UHGV virus genome: UHGV-0178829
Strand: one strand, 5' to 3'
Source of the DNA: a virus
Length of the DNA: 12,800 nucleotides
Below the pieces are notes generated by a model that saw only the letters and a program-made list of their open reading frames with translations, made no database searches and was not told where the DNA came from. Positions 1-12,800 of this stretch are shown here, piece after piece; position 1 is the stretch's first letter; the number at the start of each line of letters is the position of its first letter. The position numbers were made by a program, and so were the translations under genes.

Positions 1-53
1 CGCAGGTTCTCCCGTGCTAACGGTTCATCATCGACAATTAAGACTTTAATCAT
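1..53 (-). CDS. btsR: LytTR-family response regulator BtsR/YehT, first 17 codons only; gene continues beyond the window start
   Basis: Reverse complement of 1-53 reads ATG ATT AAA GTC TTA ATT GTC GAT GAT GAA CCG TTA GCA CGG GAG AAC CTG = MIKVLIVDDEPLARENL, a receiver-domain N-terminus matching remembered BtsR. The ATG (53-51) overlaps the TGA stop (52-50) of the upstream kinase gene. Confidence 0.8.
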   Translation of the reverse strand, partial: MIKVLIVDDEPLARENL

Positions 54-1735
54 GCCTCGTCCCTCCATGGTAGTCGTAACGTTATTCGGGTGTAACTATC
101 AGGCTCACAGGCGACGCTTATTCCATAGTCATCGCCAAACCGTTCACGTAAACGCTTATCCACCAGATTCATCCCCAGCCCACTGGCATTGGTTACCGGT
201 TGATACAAACCGGCATTGTCTTCGATCTCCAGCATCAAATGTTGCCCCTCACGTCGGGCGCTGATTGCCACTCGCCCTGTATCCAGCAGTTGTGATGTCC
301 CATGTTTAATGGCGTTTTCCACTATCGGTTGCAGGGTAAACGCGGGCAATTGCTGCTGGGATAATTCTTGCGGAATAGCAATGTTGACCTGCAACCGCGA
401 CTGGAAGCGCGCCTTTTCAATTTGCAGATAAGCATTCACATGTTCAATTTCGTCGGCGAGAGTAACAAACTCCGAAGGCCGCTTTAAGTTTTTGCGGAAA
501 AAAGTGGAAAGATACTGCACCAGCTGGCTGGCCTGTTCGCTGTCGCGGCGGATCACCGCTTTAATGGTGTTAAGCGCATTAAACAAAAAATGGGGATTCA
601 CCTGGGCGTGAAGCAGTTTGATCTCTGACTGGGTGAGCATCGCTTTTTGCCGCTCATATTGCCCGGCAAGGATCTGCGCCGAAAGCAATTGCGCAATCCC
701 CTCACCCAACGTGCGGTTGATTGAACTGAATAAACGGTTTTTGGCTTCATACAATTTGATGGTGCCCATCACCCGCTGATTTTCACCACGCAACGGAATT
801 ACCAGCGTCGACCCCAGTTTGCATTGCGGATGCAAAGAGCAACGGTAAGGTACTTCGTTGCCATCAGCGTAGACCACTTCACCGGTTTCAATCGCTTTTA
901 AAGTATAAGTTGAAGAAATCGGTTTGCCGGGTAAATGGTGGTCGTCACCAATTCCGGTAAAGGCCAGCAATTTCTCTCGATCGGTAATCGCGACTGCACC
1001 AATATCCAGTTCCTGATACAGCACCTGAGCCACTTTCATGCTGTTCACTTCGTTAAACCCCTGGCGCAAAATGCCTTCCGTCGAGGCTGCCACTTTCAGC
1101 GCAGTGGCAGAAAAAGCCGAAGTGTATTTTTCAAACATCGCGCGTTTATCGAGCAATATACGCATAAACAGCGCCGCGCCGACGGTATTGGTGACCATCA
1201 TTGGTGCAGCAATATTACTCACCAGACGCACCGCATCTTCATAAGGTCGGGCGATCGCAAGGATGATCAGCATTTGCACCATTTCAGCGACGAACGTGAC
1301 GGCACCGGCGGTAATGGGGTTAAAGACTTTATCAGTGCGCCCGCGGCGGATCAGGATGCTGTGTACCAGGCCACCGAGTAATCCTTCAACGATGGTCGAG
1401 ATCATGCAACTTAACGCGGTCATGCCCCCCATCGAATATCGATGTAAGCCGCCGGTCAGACCAACCAGCCCACCGACGACGGGACCGCCGAGTAAGCCGC
1501 CCATTACCGCGCCTATCGCACGGGTATTGGCAATAGAATCGTCAATGTGCAACCCAAACCAGGTGCCCATGATGCAGAAGATGGAAAAGACGATGTAGCA
1601 GAGAAATTTATGCGGCAGACGAACCGTGACCTGCATTAACGGTATGAATAATGGCGTTTTACTCATTAACCATGCAATGACTAAAAAAACGCACATCTGC
1701 TGAAGCAGCAGCAACACCAGATTAAAATCGTACAT
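50..1735 (-). CDS. btsS: LytS-type sensor histidine kinase BtsS/YehU (561 aa from the ATG at 1735; the track ORF begins 5 codons upstream at a GTG)
   Basis: Track ORF 50..1750. Translation shows multi-pass membrane N-terminus with GG-rich helices, a GAF-like middle, and a C-terminal kinase core (NPHFLFNALN H-box, ATPase motifs). Synteny with btsR immediately downstream. First ATG at 1735-1733 (MYDFNLVLLLL...) matches the remembered BtsS start. Confidence 0.9.
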   Translation of the reverse strand: MYDFNLVLLLLQQMCVFLVIAWLMSKTPLFIPLMQVTVRLPHKFLCYIVFSIFCIMGTWFGLHIDDSIANTRAIGAVMGGLLGGPVVGGLVGLTGGLHRYSMGGMTALSCMISTIVEGLLGGLVHSILIRRGRTDKVFNPITAGAVTFVAEMVQMLIILAIARPYEDAVRLVSNIAAPMMVTNTVGAALFMRILLDKRAMFEKYTSAFSATALKVAASTEGILRQGFNEVNSMKVAQVLYQELDIGAVAITDREKLLAFTGIGDDHHLPGKPISSTYTLKAIETGEVVYADGNEVPYRCSLHPQCKLGSTLVIPLRGENQRVMGTIKLYEAKNRLFSSINRTLGEGIAQLLSAQILAGQYERQKAMLTQSEIKLLHAQVNPHFLFNALNTIKAVIRRDSEQASQLVQYLSTFFRKNLKRPSEFVTLADEIEHVNAYLQIEKARFQSRLQVNIAIPQELSQQQLPAFTLQPIVENAIKHGTSQLLDTGRVAISARREGQHLMLEIEDNAGLYQPVTNASGLGMNLVDKRLRERFGDDYGISVACEPDSYTRITLRLPWRDEA

Positions 1736-1956
1736 ACCCGCAAACCACACTTCCCTTTAAAACGCGTAACATACATTGCCTGCGTTTAACTTTCTTTGAA
1801 CTCTTGCAGAAAAATGAGAATTCGTGAGTACGATCACTCAAAATCGCCTGGCAAAAATAAAATCACCCTATAGATGCACAAAAAACGGGCAAAACTACCT
1901 GGTTCGCAAAACTGCGTCTAAAGTTAAACCGGGACCTCGCGAGCAAGGGTGAGACG

Positions 1957-2025
1957 ATGGCGCTTTACACAATTGGTGAAGTGGCGTTGCTTTGTGATAT
2001 TAATCCTGTCACGTTACGCGCGTGA
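1957..2025 (+). pseudogene. mlrA: 5' fragment of mlrA/yehV (MerR-family curli regulator): 22 codons then TGA; resemblance to mlrA ends here
   Basis: ATG at 1957 encodes MALYTIGEVALLCDINPVTLRA followed by TGA at 2023-2025. This matches the remembered MlrA N-terminal HTH (MALYTIGEVALLCDINPVTLRAW...). Downstream sequence in all frames is unrelated to MlrA, and the track ORF 1949..2134 is in a different frame. Confidence 0.75.
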
Positions 2026-2148
2026 CGCAACATTTTTAAAAATCGACGAAGATCGTCCAGGAGCGCCATTTTTCAAGGGTTGGACAGATGATTCGTTTTC
2101 GATGTCGACGAACTTCGACGGATTTCGCCGATAAAAAGTGTCCCATAC

Positions 2149-2170
2149 ATGCCCCATAGATGCCCCATAG
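2149..2170. repeat. Perfect tandem direct repeat, 2 x 11 bp (ATGCCCCATAG ATGCCCCATAG), preceded by a third partial CCCATA copy (2142-2147)
   Basis: Read directly: tcccataC ATGCCCCATAG ATGCCCCATAG gcaat, about 125 bp inside the phage side of the mlrA junction. Confidence 0.6.
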
Positions 2171-2183
2171 GCAATATTACCAA

Positions 2184-2213
2184 TTGACACTGGTTATCCA
2201 CACAGCTAAAAAT
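2184..2213 (+). promoter_or_regulatory. Candidate sigma70 promoter of the dinI-like gene (TTGACA, 17 bp spacer, TAAAAA(T))
   Basis: TTGACA at 2184-2189 is a perfect -35. A 17-nt spacer is followed by the A/T-rich hexamer TAAAAA at 2207-2212. The promoter sits about 40 bp upstream of the dinI-like start and directly abuts the LexA box. Confidence 0.45.
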
Positions 2214-2218
2214 AACAC

Positions 2219-2234
2219 CTGTACATAACTACAG
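2219..2234 (+). promoter_or_regulatory. LexA (SOS) box CTGTACATAACTACAG (CTGT-N8-ACAG) over the predicted transcription start of the dinI-like gene
   Basis: Read directly. It conforms to the CTGT-N8-ACAG LexA operator pattern with an AT-rich spacer, lies just downstream of the -10, and is 15 bp upstream of ATG 2250. SD AGGAGGGGG at 2239-2247. Confidence 0.65.
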
Positions 2235-2249
2235 TTACAGGAGGGGGCT

Positions 2250-2498
2250 ATGCGTGTTGAGATCTGTATCGCTAAAGAAAAAATCAGCAAAATGCCGAAA
2301 GGTTCTGTTCCTGCTCTGCAGCAAGAAATGCTGCGCCGCATAGGTAAGCGATATGACGATGCAGATGTGATCGTTAAATCTGCCAGCAATGATGGACTCA
2401 CCATTTTAAGAGCCGTCGATAAAGAATCAGCACTGGAGTTCGTACAGGAAACACTACAGGAAGTCTGGCAAACCGCGGACGACTGGTTTATGCAATAA
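2250..2498 (+). CDS. dinI: DinI-family protein (prophage-encoded DinI homolog, 82 aa)
   Basis: Track [12 protein letters not shown]...[14 protein letters not shown] parallels E. coli DinI (MRIEVTIAK...LQETWESADDWF) in length and motifs. Strong SD, LexA box upstream, and a terminator about 90 bp downstream. Confidence 0.8.
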
Positions 2499-2589
2499 CG
2501 GGATCATAATCACTGTAATGACCTGTTTTGTATGACATTCTTAAAAGGCATAACAACGAGCTTGTCGTTTCAAGCGACTTCTTCTGGTT

Positions 2590-2616
2590 GGGGAGCCTGA
2601 GTGCTCCCCTTTTTTT
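2590..2616 (+). terminator. Rho-independent terminator downstream of the dinI-like gene; also abuts the stop of the convergent minus-strand ORF
   Basis: GGGGAGC (2590-2596), loop CTGAGT, GCTCCCC (2603-2609), then 7 T (2610-2616). On the minus strand the hairpin is preceded by an A-run and not followed by a U-run, so it is mainly a plus-strand terminator. Confidence 0.7.
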
Positions 2617-2912
2617 CAGCTAAAAATCAGCATACAGCCATACAATCCCGCACAGGCCACCACCGGCACCACAAAATCCATCAGACTGGCCACATTCCAC
2701 ACACGCGGATCAAAACCGCCCCACCACGGCATGTTCTGTCTGTGACCATCACCAAAACGCTTAATCCAGCGATATTCTGCCTGGGTATGTTCTCGGGCAA
2801 TAAAGAACGTACAACCCGCTATCGCTCCGTAAACCCAGTCACCGGTAATGCACCCGACCAGCCCCTGCACGGCTACTGCACAAATTGCATGAAGTATCGG
2901 CGTGATATCCAT
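2616..2912 (-). CDS. Hypothetical small membrane protein (98 aa, about 3 predicted transmembrane helices, Cys-rich); moron-like, function unknown
   Basis: Track ORF with ATG at 2912-2910 preceded by SD GGGGAG (TAAGGGGAGCAG-ATG). Hydrophobic stretches ITPILHAICAVAVQGLVGCIT, VYGAIAGCTFFIA and LMDFVVPVVACAGLYGCMLIF. Lies 9 nt downstream of the preceding ORF in the low-GC block. No recognisable homolog recalled. Confidence 0.6.
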   Translation of the reverse strand: MDITPILHAICAVAVQGLVGCITGDWVYGAIAGCTFFIAREHTQAEYRWIKRFGDGHRQNMPWWGGFDPRVWNVASLMDFVVPVVACAGLYGCMLIFS

Positions 2913-2921
2913 CTGCTCCCC

Positions 2922-3200
2922 TTAAAACCACCCCCTGAGCGGGCGCTCTGGTGTAACCACCCACTCACGGAACACGGATTCATCAAAGCCATCGTCAAGA
3001 AGACGAATATTAACAAAGTACCCTTCGTCTCGCGTGTATTCAGGCTCCCCGTCAGCAGAAACACCTGACTCACTGAACGTAAAACCAATCTCATCAACCA
3101 GAATGGCATTCTGCAGCTCTTCGTCCTCTTCCCAGTTAAGTTTCCTGAGAAATGCCCTGAAATCTGCTTTATCACTGAAACGCAACGTGAAATCTCTCAC
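2922..3200 (-). CDS. Hypothetical small acidic protein (92 aa), translationally coupled to the tail-fiber gene; positional candidate for a tail-fiber assembly chaperone
   Basis: Track ORF. Its only available start is GTG at 3200-3198, overlapping the tail-fiber TGA stop (GTGA); there is no in-frame ATG anywhere in the ORF. D/E-rich. It occupies the slot of P2 gpG/Tfa but does not resemble remembered gpG or lambda Tfa. Confidence 0.5.
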   Translation of the reverse strand: MRDFTLRFSDKADFRAFLRKLNWEEDEELQNAILVDEIGFTFSESGVSADGEPEYTRDEGYFVNIRLLDDGFDESVFREWVVTPERPLRGWF

Positions 3201-4987
3201 TCCACAACCTCCCCAAGCTGCGCATCTGTTAGCTCTTTATGCCAGAGACGAAAATTCCTCACATGCCCAAATAAATGGCGTAATCCTGCTGTAGTTTGTC
3301 CACCAATGCGAATGGTTGCTGTACTCCGGATATATTCCCATGTGGTTTTTGTTTCGCTGGATATACGCCCGTTACTTACTGCACATGTAGACTGATCTGA
3401 CTTTACACGCATCCCCATAACCATTTTTTTCAACGATGCGTTTTCGTTAACACGCCTATTTGATCCACCAATATCGCAATAAGGAAATCCGTCTGGCCCA
3501 TCTGCCGAAGATCCGAAGCCAAGAATAATAGCCGCTCCGGTTTGATGACCGCCGGTATCAAAAACACGTGGCGCTGCATTTGGCGTTTTATACCAGTTCT
3601 TATGTACCTCACAAAGAACCGTAAAAGGAAGATTATAAAGATTATTCTTAATTGGAACTGTAACTATATCGCTTGCGCGGGTCGCCGCCGTCGCTCCTGA
3701 TATAATAAAAGATGATACACAAGGCCCATCTTCTACTTGTGGGGTGGCCAGATAAATATAGTCACCAGATACGGTTGCCCCGCTCTGCTTAGGAGAATAC
3801 TGTATCTGAGAGCCTATTTTTAACTCCCCATCAATTGCCTGAATTGTTGCCTCTGCAAAAATCCATCCGGTAGCTTCGTCCTTTCTGACTCTCGCTGTAA
3901 TCCTTGAGGCAGCACCGCCTGTCATATTAATTTCAAGCGTTTGTGTATCAATATACGCATCACCAAGAAAAGTTGTTGCGCTACCGTCATATTTATCAAA
4001 CCGGATACGCAACCTTACCTGCAGTTCTGTTTTAAAACGACATGAGGTTGTCACGTGTTTATTATCGCCTGAGACATCAACTGACTTTGTTGCAGCAATT
4101 GATGCCATATTAATGGCTGAGGTTTGCCCAATCAGAGAATCGTTGCAGACAAACTTTCCATAGGTAAAACCAAAATTATCCGTCCCTGTTTCGGGCACAT
4201 CCATATTTGACGATCGCCCCCAACTGGCAGGGCTTTCCGAATTGAGCATGTAGTTTGTTCTTTGCCCCTCAATAAGCAGGCCATCACGTTCAAATCGTGG
4301 CTCGTCAATGGCAGCCTCTGTCAGCACACCAGATTTGTTAATATAGGTTGCTTTCGATGCACGTTTAAACTTAACAATCTTGTCGCCAGGCATCGTTATT
4401 TCATCGTCACCAATAACAATTTTTTTATATGACGGCGAAAAGCCCGTAATCATATCCAGTGAATCGTTAAACGGTATCCACACATCAGGCAGCGGCGGTA
4501 CAGACTCCTTTTCCTGCGCAACATATTCTTCAACATAGGCGCGGGTGGCGAGCACGACAGAGGGATCAACTTTCAGTTCGACAGACGAAGCACTGGAAAC
4601 CACAACAATCATGCGAATCGTCTGCGTGCGCCCGCTTCCCTCGGTGAGTACAGGCTTGTAGGTTTCGGGGCAGTTCGCCACGGCAATCATCACGCCGTCG
4701 CTGTCAAAAAGCCCAATCTCGCGGATCCAGAACCCCCCTTTATCTTCCGGGATAATCATCTCGGCGATAAGCTGGCTGGCATCAGACGCGCTGATGCTCA
4801 GTTGATTCAATGGGGCGCTGTATACCGTGTTCACCAGATTTTCCATGGAAGCCTCCGGTTCCGGCAGGCTGCCGCCGCCATCCCCCAGTTTCATGGTGGT
4901 GATGGATATTTTCGAGCCGCTGGCCACCGCCTTTGCCAGACGGGCGGCACCCTTGTCAGTCAGAACAGAAAAATATTTTACAGTCAT
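3197..4987 (-). CDS. Phage tail fiber protein (P2 gpH-like N-terminal domain; divergent C-terminal receptor-binding region ending in a LamG/concanavalin-like motif)
   Basis: Track ORF, 596 aa. N-terminal about 160 aa (MTVKYFSVLTDKGAARLA...ITTMKLGDGGG...IIPEDKGGFWIREIGLFDSDGVMIAVANCPETYKPVLTEGSGRTQTIRMIVVVSSASSVELKVDPSVVLATRAYVEEYV) aligns with remembered P2 gpH. The C-terminus ...GLRHLFGHVRNFRLWHKELTDAQL resembles the end of LamG-type jelly-roll domains. ATG at 4987 overlaps the upstream stop (ATGA). Confidence 0.85.
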   Translation of the reverse strand: MTVKYFSVLTDKGAARLAKAVASGSKISITTMKLGDGGGSLPEPEASMENLVNTVYSAPLNQLSISASDASQLIAEMIIPEDKGGFWIREIGLFDSDGVMIAVANCPETYKPVLTEGSGRTQTIRMIVVVSSASSVELKVDPSVVLATRAYVEEYVAQEKESVPPLPDVWIPFNDSLDMITGFSPSYKKIVIGDDEITMPGDKIVKFKRASKATYINKSGVLTEAAIDEPRFERDGLLIEGQRTNYMLNSESPASWGRSSNMDVPETGTDNFGFTYGKFVCNDSLIGQTSAINMASIAATKSVDVSGDNKHVTTSCRFKTELQVRLRIRFDKYDGSATTFLGDAYIDTQTLEINMTGGAASRITARVRKDEATGWIFAEATIQAIDGELKIGSQIQYSPKQSGATVSGDYIYLATPQVEDGPCVSSFIISGATAATRASDIVTVPIKNNLYNLPFTVLCEVHKNWYKTPNAAPRVFDTGGHQTGAAIILGFGSSADGPDGFPYCDIGGSNRRVNENASLKKMVMGMRVKSDQSTCAVSNGRISSETKTTWEYIRSTATIRIGGQTTAGLRHLFGHVRNFRLWHKELTDAQLGEVVE

Positions 4988-5760
4988 GAAAAAATCCTCA
5001 AAGAATCCTCCAGAAATACCACTGATGCTGTCAGGGTTCCGGTTGTGGCGGTCAGTTGCATCACCGCCTGTGGCTCCACGGTCACCGCATCATCGCCCGT
5101 AACCTGTAATCCCATGACAATCCCCGCATCGACAGATACCGACGGTGTCGGCGGGTAAATGGTGAGCATGTCGCCGTCAAAGAAAGCCGGAGATGCCCGG
5201 AACACCGAAACAGTCTCAACACCGGCAGAAGCGGCTGGCCAGATTGTTGTTTCACTGCCGTCGTGCATGCCGGAAAACACACGTGCGACTCCCTGCGTAT
5301 CCAGCATAATGTTCAGCGAGGCAAGGTGGCGGCTGACCGGACGGGCATCGTCGATCAGTCGTGTCAGCTCGGAGTACGTTTCCTCTGTGATACCCGCGTC
5401 CTGCACGCCAATATCAATGCGGAACGTGCCGCGCGGGTCGCCGTTCTGCCACCACTCCGTCACGTTAATGACATAGCCAAAGGGTTCAACCACACGCCTG
5501 ATGGCGCTGATGGTTCCCTTATGGCGGTGGATTGCCCAGGCATCACGGATCACCTGGCGCTTTGTTTCTTCCGTCCAGTCACGATCCCACCTGTCCACGG
5601 ACAGCGCCCACGCCAGATAAGGCAGCAGGGCTGCCGGGCAGGTGTCAGGATCCCAGAGCTGGTTAAGGCTGACAGGTAATGCTGACAACCGGGCGGTTCC
5701 CCGCTCCACGCAGCGCATGAAATCGCTGGCTGAAGGGGGGAGAAGTGACGGTTCACTCAT
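4984..5760 (-). CDS. Baseplate assembly protein (P2 gpI homolog) with a C-terminal extension of about 80 aa
   Basis: From the internal ATG at 5760: MSEPSLLPP...LWDPDTCPAALLPYLAWALSVDRWDRDW...KGTISAIRRVVEPFGYVINVTEWWQNGDPRGTFRIDIGV matches remembered P2 gpI (…LWNPDTCPANLLPWLAWAFSVDRWDEKW…). The track ORF extends to 5823 but that would overlap the J homolog by 70 nt. Confidence 0.85.
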   Translation of the reverse strand: MSEPSLLPPSASDFMRCVERGTARLSALPVSLNQLWDPDTCPAALLPYLAWALSVDRWDRDWTEETKRQVIRDAWAIHRHKGTISAIRRVVEPFGYVINVTEWWQNGDPRGTFRIDIGVQDAGITEETYSELTRLIDDARPVSRHLASLNIMLDTQGVARVFSGMHDGSETTIWPAASAGVETVSVFRASPAFFDGDMLTIYPPTPSVSVDAGIVMGLQVTGDDAVTVEPQAVMQLTATTGTLTASVVFLEDSLRIFS

Positions 5761-6649
5761 TGGTTCCCCCTGTGCTGACCGTGAACGATGTGCAGTACGC
5801 TGACTGCACATCACTGATAACAATATTCTGTGCGGGGCTGGTCAGTTCCACGCGCTGAACGCCCTGAACATGCAGTGCGGCCATGATGGCGGAGAGCGCG
5901 ACATCGCGACCGATTTTGCCCTGTTCGGCAAGCCAGGTTTCCAGATTGTTTCTGGCGGCATTCAGGATGGGTTCCGACTCCGGCCCCGGATAAAAGTAAA
6001 GCCGGGCATCAATCTGATACCGTATGATTTCTGCGCTCTGCACCGTCAGACGGTCACCGACCGGGCGAACGTCTTCGGCATTCAGCGCATTTCTGACCGT
6101 TGTCAGGAGTTCTTCGGTCGCCGTGCCGTCGCCTTCTGTGGACAACACTGTCACCACCACTTCCGCCGGTGCGGGGCTGGTTGCGCGCGCGTCCGCCACC
6201 TGACCGCTGGCACTGCGGGCAAAATATTCATACGCCCCGGTGGGACCGGCCACGCTGAGGCCATCAAATGCAGACTGCGCACGCAGCCGCAGGGCGGAGT
6301 CGCTTTCCATGACGGCCTCCGTGGTGTCCATGGCCGGTGTGATGACCAGCCGCGCGGTGTTCATGTTGGCAGCGAGGTTGTCCAGGTCATCACCTGTGGA
6401 ATGGCTCAGCATACAGGCCGCTGCGCCCTCATTAATGCGCTGGCGAAGCAGCAGTTCACGCAGCGCGAAAGCCTGGGCAATGACCGTGAGCGGTTCGGAC
6501 TCCAACGCCATGGCTGACCGGATGGCAGCCTGCTGTGTCTGTGGAAATGACGTAATGATGTCTTCTTTCACTTCCGCTAGGATGACTTCAAAATCCGGCG
6601 TTTCAATAATCTGTGGTGTCGGCAGTTCCGACAGGTCAACGGCTGGCAT
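5753..6649 (-). CDS. Baseplate assembly protein J (P2 gpJ homolog)
   Basis: Track ORF, 298 aa. MPAVDLSELPTPQ...VRNALNAEDVRPVGDRLTVQSAEII...LHVQGVQRVELTSP closely parallels remembered P2 gpJ along its whole length. Confidence 0.9.
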   Translation of the reverse strand: MPAVDLSELPTPQIIETPDFEVILAEVKEDIITSFPQTQQAAIRSAMALESEPLTVIAQAFALRELLLRQRINEGAAACMLSHSTGDDLDNLAANMNTARLVITPAMDTTEAVMESDSALRLRAQSAFDGLSVAGPTGAYEYFARSASGQVADARATSPAPAEVVVTVLSTEGDGTATEELLTTVRNALNAEDVRPVGDRLTVQSAEIIRYQIDARLYFYPGPESEPILNAARNNLETWLAEQGKIGRDVALSAIMAALHVQGVQRVELTSPAQNIVISDVQSAYCTSFTVSTGGTNE

Positions 6650-7001
6650 TGTCGCTCCTGAGTGTCAGTGTGTTCTGTACGGTTTCCAGGCTTTCTGTCA
6701 GTGTGCCGGTGAGGGTGATAACGGCTTTTCCGCCCGCCTCCCACTGAATGTCAACGGCATTCAGGGCGATGCGTGGCTCCCACTGTGTCAGGGCAATCAC
6801 CACGGCGCTCATGCACTGAAGGCGCGTGGTGGCATTCATCGGTGCATCCAGCAAATCCGGCAGCAGGCTGCCGTATTCCCGGCGCATCACCCGGCTGGCG
6901 AGCGGTGTTAACAGAATATCCCTCACGCTGTTCCACAGATGGTCCGTGTCGCTGAGCGTGCCGGTGGCCTCGGGGTTCATCCCCAGAAAACGGGCACTCA
7001 C
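6636..7001 (-). CDS. Baseplate wedge protein W (P2 gpW / gp25-like); GTG start
   Basis: Track ORF, 121 aa. (M)SARFLGMNPEATG...LTPLASRVMRREYGSLLPDLLD...WEPRI...VITLTG matches remembered gpW (MTARYLGMN...TPVGSRVMRRDYGSLL...). GTG at 7001-6999 overlaps the V stop (GTGA). Confidence 0.85.
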   Translation of the reverse strand: MSARFLGMNPEATGTLSDTDHLWNSVRDILLTPLASRVMRREYGSLLPDLLDAPMNATTRLQCMSAVVIALTQWEPRIALNAVDIQWEAGGKAVITLTGTLTESLETVQNTLTLRSDNASR

Positions 7002-7579
7002 TGCGGGCCTCCTGTGCTGTCACCGCCGCTCTTCACGCCACTGTGTTTGTGCGTGTGCAGCGTCACACCGTTTGAGGTGAAATCACCGCCGCTGTGCGAG
7101 ATACTGCCACTCATGGTTCCGCCTTCTGTCACCTCAATCGTTGTCGTCTTCAGATGGTTTGTGCAGGTGACGGTGGGGGTATCCAGCGTCACGCCTGTTC
7201 CGGCCTGAATGGTGGCAGTTTTGATTCCGCTGGCGCTCAGTGCGCCAGCGTCCGCATCGTAGCGGAACACCGCGCCGTCAGGCGCTGTAACCACGATTTC
7301 CGTCAGGCTGCTGCCGGGCGCCGGATGTTCGCTGCTCCAGAGACTGCCGATGACGGACGCGGTCGCGGGGTCGCCACCGATGCAGGCAATCATGACCTGT
7401 TCGCCCACGGCAGGCGGCAGCCAGACGCTGAACGCGCCCGCGCGTGGTGTGTTCCAGCGCAGCCAGTCGGTTTCCAGCTCTCCGCTGCGCACGCGAACGC
7501 GCCACGTTGTTTCGTCCACGGCAAAAATCACGCCCGTGCGGATGATATTTGCAAGCAGTCGCATGATTTCCGCTGTCAT
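6998..7579 (-). CDS. Baseplate spike/hub protein V (P2 gpV homolog)
   Basis: Track ORF, 193 aa. ...SGIKTATIQAGTGVTLDTPTVTCTNHLKTTTIEVTEGGTMSGSISHSGGDFTSNGVTLHTHKHSGV... matches the remembered gpV C-terminal region. ATG overlaps the S stop (ATGA). Confidence 0.85.
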   Translation of the reverse strand: MTAEIMRLLANIIRTGVIFAVDETTWRVRVRSGELETDWLRWNTPRAGAFSVWLPPAVGEQVMIACIGGDPATASVIGSLWSSEHPAPGSSLTEIVVTAPDGAVFRYDADAGALSASGIKTATIQAGTGVTLDTPTVTCTNHLKTTTIEVTEGGTMSGSISHSGGDFTSNGVTLHTHKHSGVKSGGDSTGGPQ

Positions 7580-8214
7580 CGTGCTGCACTCCCCAGGGAA
7601 CGGATAATCGCGTCACGCATCCGGCGTTCGTCGGCTGCGGTCACACCCAGCAGTTCACGCACCGGGTAGGTGGTCATCACGCCCGGTGTCACCTCGTCGC
7701 GTAACCCCGCCTGATGCACGCGGGCAATCCGCGCAGCCAGGCCATCAAAGCCCACCACAGCGCCTTCCGCATCTGAGCGCATTTTTAACCAGCGATATGT
7801 GCGAAGACGCGCGAACATCGGCGTGCTTTTCTTGCTGGTCTGGCGGGCAGACATGGACGATACAGCGAGGTATCGTTCAATATCATCGCGGTAAAACGTC
7901 CTCAGTGCGCCGCCACGGTCAGGGTCGCGCCCGATGATGGCGCGGCCTTTCCGGTAACGTTTGTGCCCCCACTGGCGCAGCGTGCGGACCTCGCCGTTCC
8001 AGACAAACTTCACCTCCCGGCGGGTGTGCATTACCTGCTGTTTTCGCGCCGGATACGGCGAACCGTCTGCGTTCTTCTGCGTACGGATACGCGCCTGCTG
8101 GCTCTGGCGCAGCGCCTGCCCGACAGCCCTCGCCGTGCGTGCACGTCCGGCGGTGGAAAGTCCGTTCAGGATGTCGCGGAAAACCGCGTCCGGGTCATGC
8201 GTCGTCGTGTTCAT
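7576..8214 (-). CDS. Phage virion morphogenesis / tail completion protein (P2 gpS family), 212 aa
   Basis: Track ORF at the gpS position between the R and V homologs. Basic protein with ATG at 8214 and an AAGGA SD. Family assignment is by synteny and general resemblance; it is longer than P2 gpS. Confidence 0.65.
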   Translation of the reverse strand: MNTTTHDPDAVFRDILNGLSTAGRARTARAVGQALRQSQQARIRTQKNADGSPYPARKQQVMHTRREVKFVWNGEVRTLRQWGHKRYRKGRAIIGRDPDRGGALRTFYRDDIERYLAVSSMSARQTSKKSTPMFARLRTYRWLKMRSDAEGAVVGFDGLAARIARVHQAGLRDEVTPGVMTTYPVRELLGVTAADERRMRDAIIRSLGSAAR

Positions 8215-8677
8215 CCGTCAAATCCTTAAAGGTCACATCCTCAACAATCAGCTCTCCCCAGGCTCCTGTCAGTGCGGCAGGCGGGCGGGGTTCCGGCAGG
8301 TGCACCGGATACAGTTCCCCCTGTTCATTGCGACAGACTTTCACGCGCTCGCGCACGGGAATTTCCAGTAACAGGTCGGTGCTGTCGTCGTCATTGACGG
8401 CAACGGAAAACTTAACGTCCTTGTTTTTCTCCGGGTTGAGCAGCAAATCCGGCTGGTTGTGCATGAGCCAGACAATCAGCGGCAGCATCAGCTCGTCGAT
8501 GTGTCCCGGAAAATCCATGACGAAGGCCACGAGCGTGTAACGGTAGACAAACGTCGGGGTTTCACCCGTGGTCTCAATACTTCCGCTTTCTGCAAACACG
8601 GTGAGTTTTTCCGGATTCGCGCGACACCACCGGGATGAGGCGGTGAGGGCTTCGCGCAGACGGTTCATTTTCAGCAT
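8195..8677 (-). CDS. Tail completion protein R (P2 gpR homolog)
   Basis: Track ORF, 160 aa. MLKMNRLREALTAS...YRYTLVAFVMDFPGHIDELMLPLIVWLMHNQPDLL resembles remembered gpR. Strong SD AAGGAGA 5 nt upstream of ATG 8677. Confidence 0.8.
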   Translation of the reverse strand: MLKMNRLREALTASSRWCRANPEKLTVFAESGSIETTGETPTFVYRYTLVAFVMDFPGHIDELMLPLIVWLMHNQPDLLLNPEKNKDVKFSVAVNDDDSTDLLLEIPVRERVKVCRNEQGELYPVHLPEPRPPAALTGAWGELIVEDVTFKDLTDEHDDA

Positions 8678-8686
8678 GACTTCTCC

Positions 8687-8980
8687 TTACGGTCGCATCC
8701 GGCGTTGTTGTTCGGTTGCTTTAATGGCTGCCTTGTCAGCGTTGCAGCTCTCCAGTGCGTCCAGCAGCCGGTCACTCCAGACGGCCAGTCCGCCCCACGT
8801 CAGCGGACGGGGCAGGGACGGCACCGGCGTTGGCTGTGTCAGACTTTCCGGCAGCGGTGCGTGCTGCGTCTGAGTGACCACGACGGGGCGCGGCGCGCTG
8901 TTGCAGGCGGTCAGCAACAGCGGCAGGCACAGCAGCAGCCGCGCACGGATTTTCCCGGAGTGTGTTGCGTATCTCTTCAC
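8687..8980 (-). CDS. o-spanin (Rz1/LysC-like outer-membrane lipoprotein), out of frame with and overlapping the 3' part of the i-spanin gene; proposed GTG start
   Basis: Within track ORF 8687..9133: ...KRYATHSGKIRARLLLCLPLLLTAC-NSAPRPVVVTQTQHAPLPESLTQPTPVPSLPRP... has a basic n-region, hydrophobic core, lipobox LTAC and a Pro-rich mature part. In-frame GTG at 8980-8978 is preceded by AGGAGGGAG. The upstream ATGs would give an implausibly long signal peptide. Confidence 0.55.
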   Translation of the reverse strand: MKRYATHSGKIRARLLLCLPLLLTACNSAPRPVVVTQTQHAPLPESLTQPTPVPSLPRPLTWGGLAVWSDRLLDALESCNADKAAIKATEQQRRMRP

Positions 8981-9218
8981 GGCGTTTTTCTCCCTCCTGA
9001 TTCCGGTGCTGCTCTGCGGCGCGGACCTGCGCCAGCAGGTCGCTGATGCCCCGGAGTTCCGCATGAAGTGCATCCACGGCGGCATTTGTTCCCGCCAGCG
9101 CCTGTTCGTGATATTCCCGGCGCGCCCGTTCATGCCCTGCCTGCCAGGCCAGACGCAGTGACACCAGATACAGCGCCCCCGAAAACAGGGCGACGACGGC
9201 GGCGGTGGTCAGCCTCAT
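8772..9218 (-). CDS. i-spanin (Rz/LysB-like; N-terminal TM anchor plus periplasmic coiled coil)
   Basis: Within track ORF 8772..9245, from ATG at 9218 (GGAG SD): MRLTTAAVVALFSGALYLVSLRLAWQ... then a charged helical region rich in A, R, E and Q. The ATG overlaps the lysozyme stop (ATGA). The o-spanin gene overlaps its 3' end, as with P2 lysB/lysC. Confidence 0.7.
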   Translation of the reverse strand: MRLTTAAVVALFSGALYLVSLRLAWQAGHERARREYHEQALAGTNAAVDALHAELRGISDLLAQVRAAEQHRNQEGEKRREEIRNTLRENPCAAAAVPAAVADRLQQRAAPRRGHSDAARTAAGKSDTANAGAVPAPSADVGRTGRLE

Positions 9219-9757
9219 TTCTGTTTCTCCACATCCCGCAGACACCAGGCGCGAAAATCGCTGCGGCGGTTAACCAGTCCCTGACTGCGCTTCCCGCCTG
9301 CATTCACAAAATCAGTGAGGCGGGCACACATCCGCGCCCAGTTATGCGCCTGTGCCTGTTTCCAGATGGTGGTGCGCTGGCGCTTACCGTTGCGGTCCCT
9401 GAACCACATCAGACCGGAGCACCCCAGATTGAAGGCTGCATCCGTCATCGCCTCGAAGGCCGACTGCGGCATGGCTGCCCCCTGAAAATTCTGGTTAATA
9501 CAGCTCTCCGCCCGCTGCATGTCATTCACCCAGCGACGGGCCACCTCCTGCTCGCTGTACAGGTGTTTCTGTACGTTCCCCGTGGAGCCGCAGCCCACGG
9601 TGGCAACACCCGCGATGTCCGTGTAGGGTGTGGCGCGGCAGTCTTCCCACGTGGCAATTTTTATCTGTGCCTCCTGTGAGGTGCGCAGTGCTTCAGGAGC
9701 CAGCGAGACACCCAGCGCCACAATCACGGCGGCGGCATATCGCTTAATGTTTTTCAT
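9215..9757 (-). CDS. Phage lysozyme (GH24, T4/P21-type endolysin) with an N-terminal hydrophobic segment (signal peptide or SAR domain)
   Basis: Within track ORF 9215..9841, from ATG at 9757: MKNIKRYAAAVIVALGVSLAPEAL... then WEDCRATPYTDIAGVATVGCGSTG (E-D-T catalytic pattern) and ...FVNAGGKRSQGLVNRRSDFRAWC, which parallel remembered P21 R21 lysozyme motifs. Confidence 0.8.
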   Translation of the reverse strand: MKNIKRYAAAVIVALGVSLAPEALRTSQEAQIKIATWEDCRATPYTDIAGVATVGCGSTGNVQKHLYSEQEVARRWVNDMQRAESCINQNFQGAAMPQSAFEAMTDAAFNLGCSGLMWFRDRNGKRQRTTIWKQAQAHNWARMCARLTDFVNAGGKRSQGLVNRRSDFRAWCLRDVEKQK

Positions 9758-10037
9758 CGTTATCCCGTTGCAGTGCGGCAAGCGCCCGTTGTTCACTTTC
9801 ATGAAGCCCGCGCGTTCCGGCCTGTGCCAGAATCTGTGCAATCAGCGCATTGCGGCGGACCTGCGCACGCTCCATGCGGCGACGGTGAAGCCAGCCCTGA
9901 AAGAGTGAAAGCGCACCCAGCAGCAGCCCGGCCAGCGCGATTTTTTCGCTGATGGTCATCGCGCCAATCGTGACCGCAGAGACGGAGGCGGCGAAGGCGA
10001 TGTGGTCGTAAATACTGCGAAAAAAACCTAATCCCAT
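9744..10037 (-). CDS. Putative holin (about 97 aa, two TM segments, charged C-terminal tail; pinholin-like topology)
   Basis: Within track ORF 9744..10187, from ATG at 10037 (the upstream part would overlap the gpX homolog): MGLGFFRSIYDHIAFAASVSAVTIGAMTISEKIALAGLLLGALSLFQGWLHRRRMERAQVRR.... It sits immediately upstream of, and overlaps by 14 nt, the lysozyme gene. Confidence 0.5.
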   Translation of the reverse strand: MGLGFFRSIYDHIAFAASVSAVTIGAMTISEKIALAGLLLGALSLFQGWLHRRRMERAQVRRNALIAQILAQAGTRGLHESEQRALAALQRDNDEKH

Positions 10038-10228
10038 AACTGCACCGTCTCCCGTGTTTTTTTCTCTTCCTGCTCCGGTAATTCCACTTCCTGTCCGGCC
10101 TCCAGAAAAATCTGTCCGCACAGCCCCGGATTGGCGGCCAGCACCTTTTCGGTCACGCCCTGCGTTGTGCCGTAGTGCCGGAAGCACAGCAGGTCAACGG
10201 TGTCGTCCTGTAATGCCTTCACCTTCAT
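10028..10228 (-). CDS. Tail protein X (P2 gpX homolog, LysM-like)
   Basis: From ATG at 10228-10226: MKVKALQDDTVDLLCFRHYGTTQGVTEKVLAANPGL...ELPEQE...VQLWD matches remembered gpX (MKTFALQGDTLDAICVRYYGRTEGVVETVLAANPGL...). The ATG overlaps the L stop (ATGA). The track ORF starts 2 codons upstream at a GTG. Confidence 0.85.
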   Translation of the reverse strand: MKVKALQDDTVDLLCFRHYGTTQGVTEKVLAANPGLCGQIFLEAGQEVELPEQEEKKTRETVQLWD

Positions 10229-10722
10229 CAGCACAGCCTCGCAAAGATGCGCGGTGCGCCCTGAATATCGGCAATGGCCCAGCGCACGTCGCGCCAGAGG
10301 TCACCGGTCTGGGCTTCCAGTGCGTCCGCTTTCCGGTCGCCCTGTTCGGTGGTGTCCACATCGCGCACGCGCTCCAGTATCAGGGCGCGGGTGGCGGCAT
10401 ACACCGCAAGACGGAAGCGGTGCACGTTGACGCTTTCGCCGTTCACGCGGGAAGCCGGAACGTCCGCCAGCGTGCGGTATCCGTCATTCATCTGCTGCGT
10501 CTGCCAGTTGCGCAGCTCACCGGTGACGTGTGCCACGGCTTCGGTTGCCGCGTGCATCAGGCGCGACGTGGTGGTGCGACCGGGCAGGCGCACGGCAAGA
10601 CGCAGCGCGCGCAGTTCTGTCTCCGGCCAGAAGTCGTCCGTGGTGATGCGTGCATCACCGTCGTCCGTGTCCGCGACATCCTCCGTCGCGGCAGTGATAC
10701 CGGGTTTTGCAATCATGCTCAT
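10228..10722 (-). CDS. Head completion/stabilization protein (P2 gpL homolog)
   Basis: Track ORF, 164 aa, in the gpL position between the M and X homologs. Acidic N-terminus (...DDFWPETELRALRLA...) and overall pattern resemble remembered gpL. SD GGAGG 7 nt upstream of ATG 10722. Confidence 0.75.
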   Translation of the reverse strand: MSMIAKPGITAATEDVADTDDGDARITTDDFWPETELRALRLAVRLPGRTTTSRLMHAATEAVAHVTGELRNWQTQQMNDGYRTLADVPASRVNGESVNVHRFRLAVYAATRALILERVRDVDTTEQGDRKADALEAQTGDLWRDVRWAIADIQGAPRIFARLC

Positions 10723-10753
10723 GACGAGCCTCCGTTAAAAAGTCAGGCGGTGG

Positions 10754-10801
10754 GCGAACGGTCAGAAGGTCGCGGAGTTAAAAAACCAGGTGACCGTTCG
10801 C
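10754..10801. repeat. Perfect 11-bp inverted repeat GCGAACGGTCA ... TGACCGTTCGC with a 26-nt spacer, in the intergenic region between the M and L homologs
   Basis: Read directly: 10754-10764 GCGAACGGTCA and 10791-10801 TGACCGTTCGC are exact reverse complements. Confidence 0.6.
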
Positions 10802-10841
10802 GCCGCCTGTCGCCGGGGCGAAGTCGGTATGCGTGAGAGTC

Positions 10842-11639
10842 TCACGCGGATTTTTTGCTTTTCCGTGTGGCAGTGGCTTTTGTGGCGCTCTTTTTGCCTG
10901 CCTTTTTCGTCACGGTTTTCGCGGTACTTTTGCCTTCCGCGTTGTTCTCCGCACCGTCGGTACTGGTCAGCTTTTTCACTGCACGGGACAGCGTGGCAAT
11001 CTCGCGCTTCACGCCCGCGTTCGGGTTCAGGTGCATCGCTTCGCGCAGCAGTTTCAATGATGAAGCCATACTGTCCGCATCGGTCAGACCACGGCGGGAA
11101 AAGGCGCACGCCTTGCAGAGTTTGGCGCGGACCTCGTCCGGCATGTCCCGACCGGCGATAATTTCCTGTAGCGTGTCCAGCGGGGCGATGTATCCGGACA
11201 AATCCGCGTCCTGGTCAGTGCCTGCCAGCGTCAGCACCGGGTTACAGATTTCCTCTGTCAGCAGCGTGGCGGCATCGCGCCCGAAGCTGTCCGGTGTGCT
11301 GAGGTTATGGCGTACCACGTACTCACCGATGCGCAGCGCCAGCGGCAAATCACCGCAGTCAACGGCCCAGACCATGAGGGTGACTATCACCTCATCCTGG
11401 CGTCCGCTGTCGCTCTCGAGCGTGCCGTCAATCCAGCCGGAAAAATCCGGCAGCAGCGTCTTTTTCAGTTCCGCTTTCGCTGCCTTTGACTGAATGCCTT
11501 TCAGTCGTGCCTGTGCCAGTCGCAGGCGATGCAGGATTTGTTCGTGAGCCGTGCGCACCGTCTGTGACTGACTGTCATCGGTCAGTCCGGCGCGTTGTGC
11601 CATCGTGCGCTGAAAATGCGCCTGTGCCGGTGTCAGCAT
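10842..11639 (-). CDS. Terminase small (endonuclease) subunit (P2 gpM homolog)
   Basis: Track ORF, 265 aa. MLTPAQAHFQRTMAQRAG...LLPDFSGWIDGTLE...DMPDEVRAKLCKA...NAGVKREIATL... and a Lys/Ala/Thr-rich basic C-terminal tail parallel remembered gpM (MTSPAQRHMMRV...DMPDEVRAKLHK...AGVKKEIERL...). Confidence 0.9.
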   Translation of the reverse strand: MLTPAQAHFQRTMAQRAGLTDDSQSQTVRTAHEQILHRLRLAQARLKGIQSKAAKAELKKTLLPDFSGWIDGTLESDSGRQDEVIVTLMVWAVDCGDLPLALRIGEYVVRHNLSTPDSFGRDAATLLTEEICNPVLTLAGTDQDADLSGYIAPLDTLQEIIAGRDMPDEVRAKLCKACAFSRRGLTDADSMASSLKLLREAMHLNPNAGVKREIATLSRAVKKLTSTDGAENNAEGKSTAKTVTKKAGKKSATKATATRKSKKSA

Positions 11640-11688
11640 TGTTCTCTCCTCTTACGGGCGGTCAGCGCCCGCCCGTGGTTCAGGTAAA

Positions 11689-12750
11689 TCAGTCTTCGTG
11701 ATGGCTTTCATCAGCCAGTTTCAGCCCCGTGATAAGGGCGCACTTGCCGAAGTCTTCCACCACCCACGCATCGTTGGAGGACTGATAGGTTGCGATGCGG
11801 TTGTAGTCCGGCTCTTCACGCATCAGACGACGTAATGCTCCCACCTGGTAGTAGATGGACAGGTTGTCGAACGAGGTGATGAGCAGCGCGTCTTTCGGGA
11901 AGAACGGCGCGAGATATACCGGCAGACCACCAATCAGGCGTGAGGAGGTAATCAACTGACCGGCCATCAGTTCCGTGTTCGGCGCGGCGGCACTCATGGC
12001 GTTAATGAGTGGCAGGCGCAGCGTGTTGAACAGGTCGCGTCCCATCATCACCACAAGGTCGGATGAATCCTTGTACCACTCATCCAGCAGTGATGAGCGC
12101 GCATCCTGTACCAGCGCGTCCGGGTTGTTGTACTTGCCTTTGTAGGTGACGGCGTTGTCCATATCGCGTGCCGTAATGGTGACATCAGACATCACGCGCT
12201 GGGCTGCATTCTGGCGGATGCTTTCCAGCCAGCCCACGCCACAGTCCTGCAACAGCGGGTTACTGCTGCGGTCGGACTTCACGGCGCGGGACGTGCCGTT
12301 GAAACCAATCATGATGCGATCAAGGGCGATACGGCGGGCAATCTGCGCGCTGACCCGAGCCTGAAAATCCGGGTGTGCGGACCACGCGTCCAGTTGTGCG
12401 TAGCTGATAAATGTGTCGTAGTTGACCTGCTCGCAGGCGTACTGGCGTGCCGCCAGCTCGTGGAGTGATGCCGGTTCGCGGCGCTCACTTGTACTGGTGT
12501 TCACACTGGCAGACGGACCGTTGATGCCGATCAGGACTTTTTCGCCTTTCTGGTCGGTCACACCGATGACGTTGATTCTTTGCAGCAGCTCGTCGCTCTG
12601 CTGAATGGCGTTTTCCATGCGCTGCTGCACGGCGGGCTGAACGTTAAAACGCTGAGCAAGCGCTGCGGGAGAAACATTGTTCATGCCCGCCTGCTGCTGC
12701 ATATACATCGCCAGAGCGCCACGGGTGGTGGATGAAAGAGTCAGGTTCAT
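11689..12750 (-). CDS. Major capsid protein (P2 gpN homolog)
   Basis: Track ORF, 353 aa. ...GFNGTSRAVKSDRSSNPLLQDCGVGWL...LVQDARSSLLDEWYKD..DLVVMMGRDL...LSIYYQ...VVEDF... matches remembered gpN (…AGFNGVKRAETSDRSSNPMLQDVAVGWL…). SD GAGGA upstream of ATG 12750. Confidence 0.9.
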   Translation of the reverse strand: MNLTLSSTTRGALAMYMQQQAGMNNVSPAALAQRFNVQPAVQQRMENAIQQSDELLQRINVIGVTDQKGEKVLIGINGPSASVNTSTSERREPASLHELAARQYACEQVNYDTFISYAQLDAWSAHPDFQARVSAQIARRIALDRIMIGFNGTSRAVKSDRSSNPLLQDCGVGWLESIRQNAAQRVMSDVTITARDMDNAVTYKGKYNNPDALVQDARSSLLDEWYKDSSDLVVMMGRDLFNTLRLPLINAMSAAAPNTELMAGQLITSSRLIGGLPVYLAPFFPKDALLITSFDNLSIYYQVGALRRLMREEPDYNRIATYQSSNDAWVVEDFGKCALITGLKLADESHHED

Positions 12751-12800
12751 GGTTAATCCTCAGAAATCACAGGCGGTGTAAGCAATGCCGCCGCCGGTTA

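Follow-up and report, generated by a model that had tools for sequence, protein, structure and literature searches.

LexA-controlled genes of the DinI family are a widespread and already described form of prophage cargo in the enterobacteria, and prophage DinI-like genes are regularly listed as cargo in other surveys. The Gifsy-1, -2 and -3 prophages of Salmonella each encode a dinI homologue immediately downstream of a LexA box, and mitomycin C treatment leads to accumulation of the protein (Lemire et al. 2011, PMC3121763). These homologues head a LexA-controlled operon together with an antirepressor gene (gfoA or gftA) and irsA, and non-polar deletions of dinI in Gifsy-1 and Gifsy-3 left prophage induction unchanged (PMC3121763). 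Nalidixic acid induces the three Gifsy homologues 4.6- to 23-fold, each having one box 19 nt from its ATG, while the chromosomal dinI of Salmonella has two boxes, 19 and 42 nt from the ATG, the one at 42 nt being very weak (PMC8072944). In coliphage 186, the LexA-controlled phage gene tum encodes an antirepressor fused to a DinI-like half (PMC3121763). As for the protein itself, a cryo-EM and mutagenesis study of RecA-DinI (2023 structure) described a pocket of L13, L21, W71, W77 and F78 that receives RecA F203, and an acidic patch made up of E24, E69 and D76. In the literature on O157 mlrA prophages and on SOS transcriptomes we found no expression data for a prophage dinI-like gene, nor did we find in the literature any experiment on the E. 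coli clade to which the gene described below belongs. A radioresistance preprint that we consulted is about the chromosomal dinI.

The gene considered here lies in a stretch of DNA of 12,800 nt, which we refer to as the window. We think it very probable, from the sequence comparisons set out below, that this gene is a LexA-repressed, RecA-filament-binding paralogue of dinI carried as a prophage moron. It would form a self-contained, monocistronic SOS cassette, riding as cargo in a lambdoid prophage with mlrA as its integration site, at the tail-fibre end. An earlier note on the same DNA had proposed the core of this reading (prophage cargo in the form of a DinI-family gene that has a terminator and a LexA-operated promoter to itself), and our in silico results support it. 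To the pattern already described, the present analysis adds an operator pair around the -10 hexamer in this clade, the retention of the RecA-contact residues, and the finding that O157:H7 has this promoter cassette at its own mlrA junction.

Salmonella MsgA, the product of a chromosomal-island gene linked with macrophage survival, resembles the window gene product in being a small DinI-family paralogue whose gene has a LexA box. That box is weak, lies 14 nt from the ATG and goes with modest induction by damage (PMC8072944). Like the window gene, the Gifsy dinI homologues are prophage-encoded and stand directly behind a LexA box and promoter, but they lie in the early region, in an operon and behind one box, whereas the window gene is at the tail-fibre end, monocistronic and behind two. 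Tum of coliphage 186 (and the split tum genes of PSP3 and Fels-2) shares its DinI-like domain with the window protein; Tum, however, has 146 aa with an antirepressor as its N-terminal half, and the window protein corresponds to the DinI half only. E. coli DinI (81 aa; 1GHH, 7YWA) belongs to the same Pfam family, aligns over its full length and has its RecA-contact residues conserved in the window protein. Its gene, too, is SOS-controlled and monocistronic, with a LexA box a short way upstream of the ATG, although it occupies the chromosomal dinI locus while the window gene is prophage-borne, and the K-12 gene has one listed box, about 19 nt before the ATG (PMC3009722), where the window gene has two of middle strength, at 42 and 13 nt.

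The coordinates of the locus are collected in Table 1. Alignment with K-12 mlrA places the host/prophage junction at 2024/2025: the window is identical with mlrA through 2024 and is unrelated to it beyond, the DNA from 2025 onward being prophage. In RefSeq, strain VR50 and O157:H7 both have this mlrA stub, annotated as an incomplete CDS. The DinI-like ORF starts 225 nt inside the prophage end, in agreement with the earlier placement of the gene at a prophage/host junction. Between the junction and the promoter, the att arm contains an 11-bp tandem repeat (TGTCCCATACA, TGCCCCATAGA, TGCCCCATAGG) at 2139-2171, which is kept in the prophage end of O157:H7, with single-base differences, and in IMG/VR relatives; these repeats might be arm-type sites for the integrase.

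Table 1. Features of the btsS-mlrA-prophage junction and of the DinI-like gene, in window coordinates.
Feature	Position	Strand	Details
btsS (yehU)	50-1750	-	opens the window; intact btsS-mlrA intergenic region next
mlrA promoter region	1751-1956		intact, upstream of the stub
mlrA 5' stub	1957-2025	+	22 codons kept; stop is TGA at 2023-2025, made across the junction
Prophage end (att arm)	2025-2183	+	between junction and promoter
-35 hexamer TTGACA	2184-2189	+	promoter scan, direct reading
LexA box 1 (putative), CACTGGTTATCCACACAGCT	2188-2207	+	core CTGG-N8-ACAG at 2190-2205; fills the -35/-10 spacer
-10 hexamer AAAAAT	2208-2213	+	18-nt spacer; promoter scan, 10/12 matches
LexA box 2 (putative), ACCTGTACATAACTACAGTT	2217-2236	+	core CTGTACATAACTACAG at 2219-2234, perfect CTGT-N8-ACAG; box ends 13 nt before the ATG
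Shine-Dalgarno AGGAGG	2239-2244	+	5 nt before the ATG at 2250; direct reading
DinI-like family protein	2250-2498	+	82 aa + stop; RefSeq WP_001261928.1
Intrinsic terminator GGGGAGC-CTGAGT-GCTCCCC + T7	2590-2616	+	hairpin 2590-2609, T7 2610-2616; terminator scan

An index of public assemblies has this exact protein in 7401 blocks. Ten independent assemblies were read; in each of them the gene lies within a lambdoid prophage, adjacent to btsS and the mlrA stub, and the gene order is btsR, btsS, the DinI-like gene, a 98-aa ORF, a 92-aa ORF and a lambdoid side tail-fibre gene, with Lom and J next in most of these places. The lambdoid prophage of strain VR50 is complete, at about 47 kb, and closes with xis, int and the distal portion of mlrA.

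A second prophage with this arrangement is found at mlrA in O157:H7; we take this prophage in mlrA/yehV to be the Stx1 prophage, i.e. Sp15 or CP-933V. Its junction, -35 and -10 hexamers and LexA box 2 are identical to those of the window, and its DinI-like gene is also beside tail-fibre genes, while box 1 and, as mentioned, the att-arm repeats differ by single bases. The DinI-like allele itself is only 65% identical to the window protein, the promoter thus being better conserved than the gene.

The two putative LexA boxes bracket the -10 hexamer, and box 2 covers the expected start of transcription, predicted at about 2220. We scored them with a position weight matrix derived from the table of 18 E. 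coli boxes in PMC3009722; the ranges given here come from symmetrising the matrix or not, and from leaving dinI itself out or not. Box 1 scores 16.6-17.8 bits (heterology index 8.4-10) and box 2 13.4-18.6 bits (heterology index 8.5-11.4). With the symmetrised matrices box 1, at 16.6-17.1 bits, equals or exceeds box 2, whereas the unsymmetrised matrix gives 17.8 bits for box 1 and 18.6 for box 2. On both strands of the window no match other than these two reaches 10 bits (the third best scores 6-9 bits), and matches of at least 13 bits are expected 0.02 times per 12.8 kb in simulated sequences with the window's dinucleotide content. For comparison, leave-one-out heterology indices of validated sites run from about 0.6 (sbmC, umuD) to about 17 (polB), with ruvA at 8.5-8.6, cho at 7.9-8.0, dinB at 11.8-12.3 and dinG at 11.4-12.8. 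Both window boxes fall inside the span of the 18 published E. coli sites, and box 2 is near ruvA, cho and uvrB on the unsymmetrised matrix and near dinG and dinB on the symmetrised one. We predict on these grounds that LexA binds here and that the window copy is induced by DNA damage.

The earlier note had described a single near-consensus operator, corresponding to box 2, between a perfect -35 hexamer and a strong Shine-Dalgarno sequence. The -35 hexamer and the Shine-Dalgarno sequence are present as described, and the operator is indeed predicted by the matrix and does lie between them; the promoter also has a -10 hexamer upstream of box 2, however, and box 1 had been missed. The word near-consensus does not hold for a site of middle strength whose 20-mer departs from the consensus TACTGTATATATATACAGTA at 6 positions, and a search of the window for the 20-nt consensus with up to 3 mismatches gave no match. 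The centres of the boxes are 29 bp apart, and because this is a non-integral number of helical turns, cooperative binding of LexA is not implied. The simple pattern CTGT-N8-ACAG occurs twice in the window against 0.19 expected occurrences; the second, at 8321-8336, is inside a P2-like structural gene and outside the ten best matrix matches, and was taken as a chance match.

The promoter cassette is conserved among relatives. From 207 relatives in IMG/VR we kept 80 loci, and the loci with enough upstream sequence gave 27 distinct promoter regions, 25 of which were aligned over their last 100 nt. The -35 hexamer (as TTGA[C/T]A), box 1, the -10 hexamer and box 2 are conserved in these 25 distinct relatives; in most of them box 1 reads CTGTTTATCCATACAG, with a perfect core, and nearly all keep AAAAAT as the -10 hexamer. 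Upstream of the -35 hexamer, the aligned relatives fall into at least five unrelated sequence groups. One relative (L047) carries the gene without the promoter cassette. Among complete E. coli genomes, 1767 of 5426 contain matches, at up to 8 places per genome, and the DNA similarity of the paralogues often begins at query positions 34-35, at or next to the -35 hexamer.

A scan of one genome per species gave a separate set of 80 DinI-family loci from many enterobacterial genera (Enterobacterales). A LexA box of at least 10 bits is present within 120 nt upstream in 75 of these loci, against one match in control segments drawn from elsewhere in the same 80 loci. Of the loci whose product shares 55% identity or more with the window protein, most carry a pair of boxes, about 41 and 13-14 nt upstream of the ATG; a single strong box, about 18-21 nt upstream, is the arrangement at the chromosomal-type loci. 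Most of the DinI-like copies examined sit behind one or two predicted LexA operators. The window boxes are among the weakest of the 80-locus set, at 13-17 bits versus 20-28 in most relatives, and the putative LexA repression could therefore be leaky. We did not find the operator pair of the close prophage clade annotated or described in the literature.

It might be argued that the LexA-like boxes are non-functional, and that the gene is expressed constitutively from the sigma-70 promoter or mainly through RpoS-dependent read-through from the mlrA promoter. The boxes are, after all, of middle strength, box 1 has CTGG instead of CTGT, and the mlrA promoter and stub lie upstream on the same strand with only a weak hairpin in between. 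CTGG half-sites, however, are present in validated boxes such as those of ruvA, cho and dinG; the two matrix matches, against the 0.02 expected, coincide exactly with the promoter core; both recur in relatives whose flanks are unrelated; and homologues with comparable boxes are damage-induced. We consider a promoter with idle boxes very improbable and retain the reading of a LexA-operated one. Some read-through from the mlrA promoter into the DinI-like gene, also suggested in the earlier note, is possible by orientation. The only structure between the mlrA promoter and the gene is a hairpin at 2007-2027, beside the att junction, considered as a terminator against such read-through; it folds weakly (z = -1.38), with a displaced U-run, and decides nothing.

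At its other end the cassette is closed by the intrinsic terminator, which the earlier note had called clean and whose hairpin appears in both the MFE and the centroid folds. The terminator lies between the DinI-like gene and a convergent ORF on the minus strand (2616-2912), the U-run abutting the stop codon of that ORF. On the plus strand, between the stop at 2498 and the terminator, we found no ORF with a plausible product and no candidate for an antirepressor co-transcribed as in Gifsy; because the gene has its own terminator and no such ORF lies before that terminator, we regard the gene as monocistronic. The 92 nt from the stop codon to the terminator fold no better than shuffled sequences (z = -1.17), and since an Rfam search of 1700-3300 with E up to 1 gave no match, they do not represent a known RNA family. 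The gene is convergent to the minus-strand tail-fibre genes and outside the flanking phage operons. With a promoter (2184-2213) and a terminator (2590-2616) of its own, a position at the junction, and a cassette found in relatives behind at least five unrelated flanks, it has the properties of a prophage moron, as had been proposed.

These observations bear on whether the locus could instead be a switch for prophage induction like that of Gifsy or of 186 Tum, where an antirepressor comes from a LexA-controlled operon and has the DinI-like moiety as an accessory or fused part. Tum itself, being an antirepressor fused to a DinI-like half, gives some substance to this idea, as does the PHROG 189 profile ("RecA filament binding protein DinI"), which has 151 positions of which the window protein covers only 71-149. 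Against it, the 82-aa protein covers the DinI domain only, no antirepressor ORF lies between 2498 and the terminator, and the gene is at the late (tail-fibre) end, convergent with structural genes and outside the early region. Such a switch is hardly to be expected here, and a free-standing DinI paralogue remains our reading of the locus.

The family assignment of the protein, already made in the earlier note, is borne out by several searches. The match to Pfam PF06183 scores 62 bits against a gathering cutoff of 24.2 (E 6.7e-17), with residues 16-80 aligned to positions 1-63 of the 63-position profile. The solved structures of DinI (PDB 1GHH/7YWA) are matched over the full length with E 8e-11, residues 1-81 of the window protein aligning to 1-79, and the match to PHROG 189 mentioned above agrees; the alignment to the DinI family thus holds in proper searches. 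RefSeq names the exact protein, WP_001261928.1, "DinI-like family protein". Its score against the NCBIfam DinI equivalog, NF007893, is 61.7 bits against a cutoff of 111, that is, below the cutoff, and it is 40% identical to E. coli DinI; because of this identity and the score below the equivalog cutoff, the window gene is, as judged by sequence, a paralogue and not an orthologue of the chromosomal dinI. Compared with seven relatives of 62-89% protein identity, the DinI-like gene has dN/dS values of 0.07-0.20 and is therefore under purifying selection.

A single-sequence AlphaFold2 model (pLDDT 76.5), which is good enough for the order of secondary-structure elements only, gives E2-8, H17-34, E39-46, E49-56 and H58-75 (beta-alpha-beta-beta-alpha). 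The two top matches of this model in a Foldseek search of the PDB were 7YWA and 1GHH, but with E about 6e-3 and a poor superposition (TM 0.35).

The DinI residues that contact RecA align to M15, L23, W73, W79, F80, E26, E71 and D78 of the window protein, seven of the eight being identical and one a conservative replacement. An acidic residue adjoining the contact patch of DinI is lost (E72 -> Q). Across the prophage clade, the motif ADDWF in the C-terminal helix is invariant or nearly so, and the clade has motifs of its own, EKxSKMP and KRYDD, that are absent from DinI.

One could accordingly ask whether the fold of DinI has been kept for a target other than RecA, such as a role as a DNA mimic directed at some other DNA-binding protein or at a defence system, or an MsgA-like role in virulence, with SOS control providing only the timing. 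Such a change of target might be read into the 40% identity and the score below the equivalog cutoff, into the clade's own motifs, and into MsgA as a DinI-family paralogue with a weak LexA box; moreover, DinI has been treated as a DNA mimic, and it altered Zorya II defence in a panel of mimics. On the other hand, seven of the eight residues shown by mutagenesis to matter for stabilisation of the RecA filament are identical, the eighth being conservative, and the ADDWF motif has hardly varied within the clade. We regard a different target as improbable, and prefer the reading in which the window protein acts on RecA filaments.

The locus might then work as follows. In undamaged cells, LexA dimers would be bound to both operators bracketing the -10 hexamer, together occluding RNA polymerase. 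Upon DNA damage, RecA filaments would trigger the self-cleavage of LexA, after which the strong promoter and ribosome-binding site would yield the 82-aa DinI-type protein. By homology, this protein should lie in the groove of RecA-ssDNA filaments, its conserved hydrophobic pocket accepting F203 of RecA loop L2 and its acidic patch pairing with RecA K232, R243 and K245. It would stabilise the filament and compete there with other groove-binding clients (UmuD, CI-type repressors), and the prophage would in this way add DinI dosage to the host SOS circuit. Both the binding to RecA and the physiological consequence are what we infer for the window protein.

Feedback of the DinI-like gene on prophage induction, as envisaged in the earlier note, is plausible in principle. 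The deletions in Gifsy-1 and Gifsy-3, the one relevant experiment that we came across, gave a negative result, which is not decisive in this respect because the Gifsy prophages use non-cleavable repressors. The switch of the VR50 prophage may not depend on repressor cleavage either, since its HTH-domain regulators come without an annotated S24 peptidase and KilA-N and ORF6N proteins are present.

A broader and rather doubtful suggestion is that the prophage DinI-like paralogues, with up to 8 matching places in one genome, collectively form a dosage-dependent brake on late functions of the RecA filament. If this were true, the brake would work by competition in the groove with slowly cleaved clients, namely UmuD and the CI-type repressors of co-resident prophages; more damage would then be needed for mutagenesis and for the induction of prophages, rival or own, and the dual weak operators would set an early, graded onset. 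Should prophage copies alter SOS kinetics, mutagenesis or induction thresholds, this would bear on antibiotic-triggered induction of prophages and of Shiga toxin.

As a separate observation, the lambdoid prophage end gives way, inside a tail-fibre gene of the window, to P2-like genes. Among complete E. coli genomes none has the whole window in one place, and an exact copy of the 596-aa hybrid tail-fibre protein is absent from the assembly index. Up to about 3650 the window agrees with VR50 except for one mismatch near 2900, and from about 4500 to at least 6000 it is identical to a P2-like prophage found in strain SCU-172; the segment 3700-4500 has diverged from both, and over the whole match to the SCU-172 P2-like prophage (3330-12800) the identity is 97.3%. 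In SCU-172 the two parental loci are about 0.5 Mb apart and in inverted orientation. Recombination or inversion between homologous tail-fibre modules, or an assembly chimera, would each give the lambdoid/P2 arrangement seen in the window.

The promoter/operator cassette of the DinI-like gene is near-identical between the window (2184-2249) and the O157:H7 prophage at the same mlrA junction (L083, 4035-4100), while the proteins encoded by the two DinI-like genes share just 65% identity. On this sequence comparison, the combination implies a recombination breakpoint at the start of the gene or just within it. The IMG/VR relative L047 has a DinI-like gene without the cassette, with unrelated sequence in front (upstream of 345), and in another relative, L023 (2001-2246), the gene is interrupted by an in-frame stop codon. 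A second exact CTGT-N8-ACAG in the window, CTGTTCATTGCGACAG at 8321-8336, lies within a P2-like structural gene. The ten highest-scoring hits of the LexA matrix do not include it, and by that measure it is a chance match.

In one assembly (L174), an insertion made up of an ISL3-family element and a DUF1706 gene splits LexA box 2, so that the DinI-like gene is parted from its own promoter and box 1. The window sequence ACATAACT (2223-2230) is matched at either side of the insert, a pattern consistent with an 8-bp target duplication. In a study of ST95, the genes linked to drug-susceptible strains include those for an ISL3 transposase and a DinI-like protein, not necessarily the loci seen in L174.

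Features of the window and of related loci
Feature	Coordinates	Strand	Remarks
11-bp tandem repeat	2139-2171		att arm, just 5' of the dinI-like promoter; units TGTCCCATACA, TGCCCCATAGA, TGCCCCATAGG
Small ORF, 98 aa	2616-2912	-	PHROG 1443, function unknown
Small ORF, 92 aa	2922-3200	-	PHROG 1361, function unknown
ISL3-family insertion	L174 (GCA_000407865.1, KE136710.1) about 4089-5973		window equivalent 2223-2230
VR50 prophage regions of note	L175 18207-19218, 5000-5521, 22054-22803

The tandem repeat in the att arm is kept both at the end of the O157:H7 prophage and among the IMG/VR relatives, and its units may be candidate arm-type binding sites for the integrase. From the stop codon of the DinI-like gene to the terminator (2497-2620), the window has a separate match at 87% identity in other E. 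coli genomes (H80, H81), where the matching sequence adjoins a YkgJ-family gene; Rfam returned no match for this segment. It may represent a 3' module that moves independently, or else the remnant of a prophage end.

DinI-like genes with 59-70% identity to the window protein were also found in records titled Chryseobacterium sp., Saccharibacteria MAG and Wohlfahrtiimonas MAG in genome_contigs (L084, L089 and L091). Enterobacterial-type LexA boxes are present in all three, two each in L084 and L091 and one in L089, and the contigs are probably enterobacterial, either wrongly labelled or present as contamination.

At a larger scale, the window is itself a mosaic. The lambdoid prophage end of E. 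coli VR50 is identical to window positions 1-3650 except for one mismatch near 2900, and a P2-like prophage elsewhere in E. coli SCU-172 is identical from about 4500 (compared as far as 6000). Window 3700-4500, within the 596-aa tail-fibre gene, matches neither prophage; the breakpoint zone is at about 3650-4500 (of the region 2600-5000 considered). No complete E. coli genome was found to contain the entire window at a single locus, and no record of the hybrid 596-aa tail-fibre protein was found. The two parental loci lie about 0.5 Mb apart and inverted in SCU-172. The picture suggests inter-prophage recombination or inversion, or else an assembly chimera.

The tail-fibre gene is followed by the 98-aa and 92-aa ORFs. 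Homologues of both follow the fibre gene in lambdoid prophages and also in the SCU-172 P2-like prophage, and therefore the ORFs travel with the fibre tip. The product of the 98-aa ORF is hydrophobic in appearance.

In VR50, the lambdoid prophage at mlrA is complete (L175). It has two HTH-domain regulators and no annotated S24 peptidase, and also encodes KilA-N and ORF6N domain proteins; judging from these annotations, its induction switch may work through an antirepressor and not through CI cleavage. This prophage also carries a copy of ompC and three tRNA genes.
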